NCBI RefSeq assembly: GCF_055900595.2
Contig: NZ_CM148325.1
Reading direction: 5' to 3' (one strand)
DNA: 64,000 nucleotides
Shown: one piece after another, positions 22,623-24,535 of the stretch
Numbering within the stretch: the stretch's first letter is position 1
How the letters are laid out: the number at the start of each line of letters is the position of its first letter
Notes under the pieces: generated by a model
What the model was told of the DNA's origin: nothing
Seen by the model: only the letters and a program-made list of their open reading frames with translations
Databases searched by the model: none
Translations under genes and position numbers: made by a program

Positions 22623-22946
22623 ATGTCCCATCAGAAAATTATTCAGGATCTTATTGCATGGATTGACGAGCATATTGACCAGCCACTGAACATTGATGTC
22701 GTCGCGAAAAAATCAGGTTATTCAAAGTGGTACTTACAGCGGATGTTCCGTACGGTAACGCATCAGACACTTGGTGATTACATTCGCCAACGCCGCCTGT
22801 TACTGGCCGCCGTTGAGTTGCGCACCACCGAGCGTCCGATTTTTGATATCGCAATGGACCTGGGTTATGTCTCGCAGCAGACCTTCTCCCGCGTTTTCCG
22901 TCGGCAGTTTGATCGCACTCCCAGCGATTATCGCCACCGCCTGTAG
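22623..22946 (+). CDS. soxS: AraC/XylS-family superoxide-response activator SoxS (107 aa)
   Basis: ATG at 22623; small dual-HTH AraC-type protein matching SoxS; divergent from soxR. Confidence 0.96.
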   Translation: MSHQKIIQDLIAWIDEHIDQPLNIDVVAKKSGYSKWYLQRMFRTVTHQTLGDYIRQRRLLLAAVELRTTERPIFDIAMDLGYVSQQTFSRVFRRQFDRTPSDYRHRL

Positions 22947-22948
22947 TT

Positions 22949-24535
22949 TTATTGCCCGCGCGTTAACCCCCGCGCGGGTAATTGCTCCATCCATTGCATA
23001 AACACCTGCGGCGGCATCGCCTTCGCAAAGAACCATCCCTGGCAATAACGCACGCCGCGTTTACGCAACCAGTTAACCTGATCCTCAGTTTCTACCCCTT
23101 CTGCAATCGTTTTCAGCCCCAGGCTGTGCGCCAGCTCGATGATGTGTTCCGCAATCAAATGGCTGGTTTTGTGGGTAGTCAGCGTCTCAACAAACGATTT
23201 GTCGATTTTCAAAATATCAACATTCAATGATTTAAGGTTATGCAAGTTAGAGTAGCCAATACCAAAATCATCAATTGCCACTTCGTAACCGGCCTGGCGG
23301 AAAGCCAGAATAATCGGCGTCATTTTGTCGACATCAAGAAATGCATGTTCAGTCACTTCAAATTTAATTTGCTGTGGACGCACCGCGTATTGCTCTGTTT
23401 TCTGATTGGTTCGCGCTATCAACCGTGACGTATGAAAATCGGAGGCCGACAGATTAATAGAAACATAGCGATCGGCATGTGTTGCCAGGTACGCGCCCAG
23501 ATCGCGGAAGACATTATCAATAACATAATCAGTTACCTGTCCGATCATCCCCTCCTTTTCTGCCAGCGGAATAAACTCTGCCGGATTCATTACTTGCCCC
23601 TGCTCACCAGGCCAACGTAACAATGCTTCAGCGCCGATACATTTTTCTGTTTTGATATCGATTATGGGCTGGTAATAAAGGCAAAGTTGATGTTTTTCGA
23701 GGGCGCGTTGCAATTTGCGTTTGGGAGACAAATAGTTTTGTCGAATACGTAGCCAGAGTAATAACAGAACAAGACTCCCCAAAATGCCGGCGGGTAACGC
23801 AAAAATAAGATGATTATAAAAATGCGCTATAAGACGTTGATATGAAGTCGCAACAATGGCTGCAATTGGGCGTTTTGTCGAATAAACTGTCGCATATAAA
23901 TAGCCATTTCTTTGTACGGTTAAATCATTCAAATGAATCAGCGGAGAAAACGTTGCTGCCGAGGCCTCGTTGCTTAACGAGAAAAAGGTTTTCGTTACCG
24001 TATCATACACACCCCATTGCAATGTCGGATCATCAGACATCACTTCACTCCAGAATAGAGGGTTGATGACCGCCACATAATTTCCCCGCTGCATATAGGT
24101 CATTTTATAGCCAGAGAAAAAAGGCGTATCGCGGTAATAATAGATAGAAACGTTAGGTTCACGCTTATAATCGGCTGGTGCAATCGTATAACCGTTTACA
24201 GGCGCTATCAGCGATGAGCATAAAAAATGGTTATCACGGGCATAGATCAATTCATTAATATAAAGATAGCCACGAATAATATTCAACATTCGCTTTTGAT
24301 GGGCCGGAGTGCAAACTTGCCCCTGATAGCGTTCTGCTGCATCGCTCACTAAATCTGCCTGGCGAATGACCAGCTCGGATTTATCCAGCGCCAGCTGAGC
24401 AAAAGTTTGGAGCTGACTATTCACTTCTGATTTTGCCCAAAGGAAGGCAATCCATAGCGACAGAATGATGGGAAAGAGAACTAAAAAGATAATGCCCGGC
24501 AACGCCAGTAATTGGTGTCGTGCATGATGACTCAT
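22949..24535 (-). CDS. pdeC: Membrane-anchored c-di-GMP phosphodiesterase (CSS-motif sensor + EAL domain), about 528 aa
   Basis: ORF 22949-24544 trimmed to ATG 24535; two transmembrane segments flanking a periplasmic domain and a C-terminal EAL domain. Confidence 0.85.

Follow-up and report, generated by a model that had tools for sequence, protein, structure and literature searches.

The soxS and pdeC genes of Escherichia coli meet tail to tail, and a GC-rich stem-loop just past the soxS stop codon lies within the last codons of pdeC. This stem-loop (22951–22982) is probably a 3′ element of soxS that is under selection as RNA in the soxS sense and defines or protects the 3′ end of the soxS mRNA. 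All positions are those of the window, by which we mean the whole stretch of 64,000 nucleotides analyzed (contig NZ_CM148325.1 of assembly GCF_055900595.2).

Gene Organization at the soxS/pdeC Junction

The features that make up the junction are as follows.

22073–22537, minus strand: soxR coding sequence, divergent from soxS (ORF list, RefSeq)
22623–22946, plus strand: soxS coding sequence, 107 amino acids, TAG stop codon at 22944–22946 (ORF list, RefSeq annotation, Pfam)
22947–22948, no strand: spacer of 2 nt between the stop codons (sequence and ORFs)
22949–24535, minus strand: pdeC (formerly yjcC) coding sequence, 528 amino acids, TAA stop codon at 22951–22949 (ORF list, RefSeq)

The soxR-soxS-pdeC segment is 100% identical to that of E. 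coli strain Z0117EC0005, and the RefSeq gene names (soxR, soxS, pdeC, yjcB, and ssb) were taken from the annotation of this identical strain. The plus strand from 22940 to 22982 reads cctg TAG tt TTA ttg cccgcgcg ttaacccc cgcgcggg taat, where the TTA at 22949–22951 is the TAA stop codon of pdeC. The annotation of K-12 MG1655 has the same layout, with pdeC at 4275471..4277057, soxS at complement 4277060..4277383 and a spacing of 2 nt. A preliminary description of this DNA had placed the two genes tail to tail with their stop codons 2 nt apart, and the sequence, the open reading frames and the K-12 annotation all agree with it. The 120-nt junction is single-copy and 95–100% identical in 5423 of 5424 complete E. 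coli genomes; the K-12 hairpin differs from that of the window by one base, which is in the loop.

SoxS is a member of the AraC family, and as its HTH domain (Pfam HTH_18, residues 28–106) reaches residue 106 of 107, there is no spare 3′ sequence on the soxS side. PdeC is a CSS-EAL c-di-GMP phosphodiesterase, in which Pfam identifies the CSS-motif (residues 40–243) and the EAL domain (residues 273–505). The residues past the EAL domain form a C-terminal tail of 23 residues, and it is in this tail that the hairpin is encoded.

A Stem-Loop in the 3′ End of pdeC

22951–22982, plus strand: soxS-sense stem-loop with arms 22951–22962 and 22971–22982 (repeat search, folding, RNAalifold)

The core of the stem-loop (22955–22962 paired with 22971–22978) consists of 8 bp, all of them GC, and encloses a loop of 8 nt (22963–22970). 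It corresponds to the inverted repeat cccgcgcg-N8-cgcgcggg that had been described at 22955–22978 in the last codons of pdeC, and was found exactly there. The extended arms of 12 nt are 92% complementary in the inverted-repeat search. The stem begins 8 nt past the soxS stop codon; on the other strand, the extended stem-loop overlaps PdeC codons 519–528 and the A of the pdeC stop codon, with the stem corresponding to P520–G527. An inverted-repeat scan of the whole window, meant as a chance baseline, was set aside, as it listed 12 pairs from which the hairpin was absent.

Folding of the soxS-sense RNA gave −23.7 kcal/mol (z = −5.9), and none of 200 shuffled sequences was equally stable, while the pdeC-sense RNA gave −18.9 kcal/mol (z = −1.5). 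The core stem of E. coli is a perfect palindrome, and the 8-bp GC core can form on both strands. Because it folds on either strand in E. coli, the assignment of the stem to one of them rests on other species; among the 5424 complete E. coli genomes, with a junction that is 95–100% identical, variation is too low for a test of covariation.

No Rfam family matches the hairpin, and no repeat match was found at its position. A REP or BIME origin was considered and rejected, as the element is found at one place per genome in the 5424 E. coli genomes, is intragenic and has no Rfam or repeat match.

Comparison of the Hairpin Across Enterobacteriaceae

The soxS loci of 80 Enterobacteriaceae species were compared, and the convergent pdeC was located in each. 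In 64 of the 80 species the two genes abut, with a spacing of −16 to +15 nt; the coding sequences overlap in 26, and the exact spacing of 2 nt from stop to stop is found in 18. Among the species compared, the E. coli-type stem (GCCCGCG...CGCGGGC) is present only in Escherichia, Salmonella, Citrobacter, and Intestinirhabdus.

For the analysis of covariation, 24 sequences from the clade formed by these four genera were used, which align without indels. In the soxS sense, 86.7% of the cells of the stem pair in register, against 33–51% with the partner shifted out of register. Four column pairs contain compensatory changes, namely 21–50 (UA<->CG), 28–43, 29–42, and 31–40, and the RNAalifold consensus is a 9-bp stem with 3 compensatory pairs. 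When the same sequences are read in the pdeC sense, 75.4% of the cells pair. This value is lower because the G·U wobbles of the soxS sense, about 40 cells compared to about 10 in the pdeC sense, become A·C on the pdeC-sense strand. Examples of the energies in individual species, soxS versus pdeC sense, are −25.8 versus −13.4 kcal/mol and −20.5 versus −8.2 kcal/mol.

In a symmetric search, the best hairpin within −13 to +80 of the soxS stop codon was determined for both senses in 66 species. Mean energies were −18.3 kcal/mol (soxS sense) and −14.3 kcal/mol (pdeC sense), with the soxS sense favored in 50 of the 66 species; of this asymmetry we use the direction alone as evidence, since the statistics count related species as independent and the p-values are inflated. 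Control windows within pdeC yielded weaker hairpins (about −10 kcal/mol) and the opposite strand bias. In Klebsiella, Raoultella, and Kosakonia, neither strand is clearly favored.

In other genera, the end of pdeC harbors soxS-sense hairpins of a different kind. That of Enterobacter is built from the codons W-Q-Q-Q/M-P-P-Q, that of Klebsiella has a 10-bp stem, and the soxS-sense hairpins of Enterobacter cloacae and K. pneumoniae have z-scores of about −4. In Kluyvera and Pseudocitrobacter, which are without pdeC, soxS is followed directly by a hairpin or a REP. In Pseudocitrobacter it is a REP that takes the hairpin's place, the same place that is occupied here by a single-copy element which, unlike the REP-type 3′ stabilizers, is not a REP. 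As the comparative evidence assigns the strand, we conclude that the stem-loop most probably belongs to the soxS transcript.

The same data bear on the idea that the stem is a bidirectional terminator for both genes, which would halt polymerases from both sides and program head-on collisions. We consider this very unlikely, even though the E. coli core palindrome folds on both strands with the energies given above and positioned collisions have been reported to need a stem-loop (bioRxiv 10.1101/2022.10.23.513370). The flanks are wrong for such an element: the 5′ flank in the soxS sense is U-rich (GUUUUAUU), so that an A-rich tract (CAAUAAAA) follows the stem in the pdeC sense, and the tail in the soxS sense is of mixed composition. 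Moreover, the stem does not appear to be maintained for both transcripts. Pairing is lower in the pdeC sense and the wobbles are mostly on the soxS sense, so that the pdeC-sense stem decays to A·C mismatches across species; it also lies in translated codons, where it would be melted by the terminating ribosome, and the stem persists in lineages that lost pdeC. The bidirectional terminators described by SEnd-seq (bioRxiv 10.1101/2022.10.23.513370) share with the present locus a single palindromic stem where convergent genes meet, but here the stem has no A- and U-tracts at its flanks, lies within one ORF, and has evolved in favor of one strand.

Probable RNA-Level Constraint on the PdeC C-Terminus

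Conservation of the PdeC C-terminus was compared to that of the hairpin. Residues 522–526 of the PdeC tail vary freely, and other genera have quite different tails; the third codon positions in the stem, in contrast, are frozen. For the four-fold sites in the last 255 codons of pdeC (n = 72), the mean third-position entropy is 1.32 bits, while the values for P520 (0 bits) and G527 (0.49 bits) are both among the five lowest of the 72. In codon 523 the third base is invariant though the codon encodes E, G, L, or M, and in codon 526 it is invariant though the codon encodes C, G, H, R, or S. Frozen third positions in the stem combined with varying amino acids are the opposite of the pattern predicted for protein-coding selection.

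The stem has also been retained in three lineages that lost pdeC. In Escherichia sp. MOD1-EC7003 pdeC is lost save for residues 501–528, in S. enterica subsp. arizonae it is lost save for residues 503–528, and in Intestinirhabdus alba there is no recognizable PdeC sequence; in all three the stem is kept, at the unchanged offset of 8 nt past the soxS stop codon. We regard this retention as the strongest evidence for the putative constraint at the RNA level, with the qualification that two of the three deletion remnants also retain 50–60 nt past the hairpin, so that the stem may have been retained in part because the deletion is recent or its endpoints fell there by chance. A GCGGCGG microhomology is found at the site of the L003 deletion.

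That the inverted repeat is instead a by-product of the codons of the PdeC tail (P-A-R ... R-G-Q), or a palindrome at the DNA level, is highly improbable. Both arms are coding, and the stem does map onto the conserved P-A and G-Q, but the tail lies outside the EAL domain, its residues 522–526 vary while the third positions of the stem are frozen, and the stem outlasts the deletion of pdeC. In addition, some of the compensatory changes are non-synonymous, such as R526C in L004, which occurs with a synonymous change of A521. With respect to a DNA palindrome, the G·U asymmetry points to RNA rather than DNA. The by-product reading was rejected on the codon-position and deletion evidence. We conclude from these alignments that the stem probably shapes the PdeC tail and not the reverse; kept by RNA selection in the soxS sense, it would dictate much of this tail (P-A-x-x-x-x-x-G-Q-stop).

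Formation of the soxS 3′ End

The hairpin was not called in a consensus terminator scan, because no T-run follows it. The tail after the stem reads UAAUUGCUCC, and there are 3 T in the 8 nt after position 22979 (alignment column 48). In 22 distinct relatives, the 8 nt past the stem contain a mean of 2.7 T compared to 2.1 expected. The plus strand has its next terminator-like sites about 2 kb further on, at 24976 and 25251. The preliminary description had called the stem-loop the soxS terminator hairpin and the only one that could terminate this gene. Its attribution to soxS is borne out by covariation, strand asymmetry and the deletions, and no other terminator-like site is present on the plus strand before 24976; the hairpin itself, however, goes uncalled, and in the absence of a U-tract it does not qualify as a canonical terminator.

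We consider it doubtful, though possible, that the hairpin is nevertheless a functional Rho-independent terminator, releasing the soxS transcript 7–9 nt past the stem. Like the known intrinsic terminators it is a GC-rich stem-loop a few nt past the stop codon (a strong GC stem at 8 nt), the next candidate sites are about 2 kb off, and the tail of E. coli (UAAUUGCU) is partly U-rich, as is that of Salmonella with 4–5 U in 8. Yet the U-tract that defines such terminators is lacking in E. coli and most relatives, and what U there is after the stem is not conserved (mean 2.7 in 8, with 1 in 8 in some Citrobacter). Furthermore, the consensus scan does not call it, and genera that are free of the coding constraint of pdeC still have hairpins without a U-tract after soxS.

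Published 3′-end data were also consulted. In the Term-seq tables of Adams et al. (2021; PMC7815308), obtained from uninduced cultures, the only 3′ end listed is at the soxS start codon, and no minus-strand 3′ end is listed between K-12 positions 4273892 and 4277382 in these cultures, in which soxS was not induced. The lack of a 3′ end at the hairpin in these uninduced cultures may also speak against an intrinsic terminator. The TERMITe and SMRT-Cappable-seq supplements make no mention of soxS, pdeC, or yjcC, and a search of the literature on soxS mRNA stability and stem-loops, and on soxS antisense RNA and interference, returned nothing specific beyond ExcludonFinder.

The RNA downstream of the stem has a composition of its own.

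22979–23160, plus strand: C-rich, G-poor untranslated stretch with a putative rut-like composition (GC skew)

On the soxS-sense strand, the GC skew ranges from −0.24 to −0.37 between 22880 and 23160 (80-nt windows). C-rich, G-poor untranslated RNA has the composition typical of Rho loading regions. Past the soxS stop codon such RNA is found, untranslated, rich in C and poor in G over some 200 nt beyond the stem, a correspondence that concerns composition only. A stable hairpin without a U-tract, followed by C-rich RNA, likewise resembles the stem-loops at the processed ends of Rho-terminated transcripts (Dar and Sorek, 2018; PMC6061677), and the composition of the soxS/pdeC junction fits that predicted for a Rho-terminated transcript with a protective stem. 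In a soxS read-through RNA, the stretch from 22979 to 23160 is antisense to pdeC.

As there is no U-tract, we infer that the main role of the stem-loop is the definition or protection of the soxS 3′ end. The stem would have been maintained by selection on the soxS-sense RNA rather than on the PdeC protein, and would date back, inside the non-catalytic PdeC tail, to the common ancestor of Escherichia, Salmonella, Citrobacter, and Intestinirhabdus. The stem would act as a pause site and as a barrier to 3′ exonucleases, thereby defining and protecting the 3′ end of the soxS mRNA, and release of the polymerase may occur through weak hairpin-dependent termination, through Rho acting on the downstream C-rich RNA, or through collision with polymerases transcribing pdeC.

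Transcript Overlap and Expression of pdeC

With stop codons only 2 nt apart, an overlap of the soxS transcript with that of pdeC is inevitable and amounts to about 35 nt or more. The overlap of the 3′ untranslated regions that had been proposed from the sequence is indeed unavoidable given this geometry, and overlap in RNA-seq data has been published: ‘pdeC-soxS’ is found in Table 1 of the ExcludonFinder paper (NAR 2025; PMC12288877) among 165 convergent excludons of MG1655, which were called in at least 50% of 58 MG1655 RNA-seq samples. In that study, the predicted terminators overlap in 146 of the 165 convergent excludons of E. coli, and it is argued in general that terminators embedded in the transcription unit of the neighbor lead to obligatory overlap (PMC12288877). 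By geometry and by this published RNA-seq, soxS/pdeC shows the transcript overlap of a convergent excludon. It is like the other members of this class in its convergent orientation, very short spacer and unavoidable overlap, and differs in that the stem is within the coding sequence of the neighbor, not merely in its 3′ UTR.

Whether the overlap has a regulatory effect is a separate matter. In a regulatory excludon, strong induction of soxS would repress pdeC in cis, either because polymerases collide or because RNase III cleaves the 3′ duplex, and c-di-GMP would rise under superoxide. The published listing and the tight abutment or overlap of the coding sequences in 64 of 80 species are in line with such an effect, as is the redox control of PdeC itself, which is redox-gated through DsbA and the gene for which is σS-controlled (PMC5897775). 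We nonetheless regard it as unlikely. For soxS RNAs that end at the hairpin, the overlap would be limited to about 35 nt out of the 1.6 kb of pdeC, and the abutment can also be explained by there being no need for a spacer. Moreover, in K. pneumoniae CG43 paraquat induces both the yjcC mRNA and a fusion to the yjcC promoter, and expression of yjcC is lower in soxRS mutants and is therefore positively SoxRS-dependent (PMC3720812). These responses are opposite in sign to the interference of soxS with pdeC that had been proposed, and thereby point the other way; whereas reciprocal expression is the hallmark of excludons, the Klebsiella yjcC and soxS data point to co-induction by paraquat (PMC3720812). 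A microarray paper on paraquat does not mention yjcC.

A MarA-bound site upstream of pdeC is a further argument against repression through the overlap. ChIP-seq of MarA in ETEC H10407 identified a marbox in the yjcB<>yjcC region (PMC5684230), and an exact match to this site is present in the window.

24777–24791, plus strand: marbox GCAATAAAAGTCACG, candidate SoxS/MarA/Rob site (exact match to the ETEC H10407 MarA site)

The marbox sits in the divergent promoter region of pdeC and yjcB, and could tie either of these genes to oxidative stress. Given this upstream marbox and the induction in Klebsiella, the link with oxidative stress may run through the promoter and not through the 3′ overlap. 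A connection between oxidative stress and PdeC is plausible, and need not depend on the overlap.

Discussion

The layout of soxS and pdeC has stood in the K-12 annotation for decades. Because that annotation contains it and an excludome list of 2025 names the pair, the finding is already known, and the arrangement is an ordinary gene overlap, a convergent excludon. Our comparison adds evolutionary detail: it suggests that the stem is under selection as soxS-sense RNA and overrides the PdeC tail, that it outlives pdeC, and that other genera appear to substitute different hairpins. This detail is modestly interesting and will not surprise a specialist.

The locus has practical consequences for work on pdeC (yjcC). 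C-terminal tagging or deletion of this gene displaces or removes the 3′ stem of soxS; in the available pdeC::3xFlag strains (PMC5897775), for instance, the stem is separated from soxS by the insert. RT-qPCR of yjcC after paraquat that is not strand-specific may partly measure read-through from soxS.

We think it quite unlikely that the stem is the core of a conserved cis switch, in which soxS transcription, by read-through or duplex formation, lowers the output of PdeC. If it were, superoxide would raise c-di-GMP independently of the SoxS protein, and a need to preserve the overlap would account for the finding that soxS and pdeC still abut or overlap in 64 of the 80 species although the hairpin has been invented anew. 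More generally, if the overlap is regulatory, it would couple the superoxide response to the control of biofilm and c-di-GMP without a protein intermediate, and, PdeC being redox-gated (PMC5897775), a single phosphodiesterase would receive two redox inputs. Returning to the reading that we favor, in which the stem-loop is a 3′ element of soxS with a probable role in 3′ end formation or stability, the locus illustrates cleanly how a structure in non-coding RNA constrains the C-terminal tail of a protein.

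Possible further constraint at the 3′ end of pdeC

Within PdeC codons 506–510 (A-M-P-P-Q; positions 22993–23022), the four-fold sites of A506, P508 and P509 show an unusually low third-position entropy of 0.47–0.59 bits, versus a mean of 1.32 bits for the 72 four-fold sites in the last 255 codons. In Enterobacter and Lelliottia the same segment forms the 3′ arm of an alternative soxS-sense hairpin. The low entropy and the hairpin arm together hint at a second RNA-level constraint on this part of pdeC. Within the soxS-sense stem-loop itself, the loop cytosine at position 22967 (column 36 of A2, the alignment of junction sequences from the Escherichia/Salmonella/Citrobacter/Intestinirhabdus clade) serves as the third base of codon 523 in PdeC. 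It is invariant in all 24 sequences, and the residue encoded by this codon varies between E, G, L and M.

Exceptions to the tight convergent arrangement

The tight abutment of soxS and pdeC is broken in Kosakonia and relatives (loci L050, L053, L056, and L058), where 449–2814 nt of inserted sequence separates the two genes. In addition, pdeC was lost independently three times, in Escherichia sp. MOD1-EC7003, S. enterica subsp. arizonae and Intestinirhabdus alba, and soxS lies in tandem with yjcB in all three lineages. The deletion in Escherichia sp. MOD1-EC7003 (L003) lies at a GCGGCGG microhomology and joins codon ~500 of pdeC to the region upstream of the gene.

Loci with pdeC loss
L003, 3325–3413
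L006, 3325–3407
L007, 3325–3700

The soxR-soxS-pdeC allele of the window (22000–24700) is rare, with at least 99% identity over 2.7 kb in only 8 of 5426 records; approximately half of the records are merely 90–95% identical. For the soxS/pdeC junction and the 5′ half of pdeC, however, identity is nearly always 95% or higher, so the divergent part should lie elsewhere in 22000–24700.

Other features in the window

Other features
18299–18356, perfect inverted repeat of 27 nt with a 4-nt loop (GCCCGAGGTAATCTGAAAAAGGTGCAA / TTGCACC...)
21941–22080, + strand, SraL/RyjA sRNA (Rfam RF01408, 157 bits)
24777–24791, + strand, marbox GCAATAAAAGTCACG, exact match to the MarA site of ETEC H10407

The inverted repeat is the longest of the hairpin type among the pairs listed by a whole-window scan. 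The marbox, located between yjcB and yjcC by MarA ChIP-seq in ETEC H10407 (PMC5684230), may allow SoxS, MarA or Rob to act directly on pdeC or yjcB. At the other end of soxS, published Term-seq data place a strong RNA 3′ end at K-12 position 4277382 (−), equivalent to 22624 (+) (PMC7815308 supplement). The end falls on nucleotide 2 of the start codon of soxS and implies either a short RNA from the 5′ UTR or a transcript that is terminated prematurely or processed right where soxS begins.

Convergent excludons of MG1655 include all three paralogous regulator loci, pdeC-soxS, marB-eamA and ytjC-rob (PMC12288877, Table 1). On the soxR side, the convergent SraL/RyjA sRNA overlaps the last 8 nt of soxR (3′ end at 22073), and the SraL/RyjA terminator matches the Rfam model on the opposite strand as well (22049–22084). 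Because of this overlap, the soxRS locus has convergent overlapping partners at both ends.
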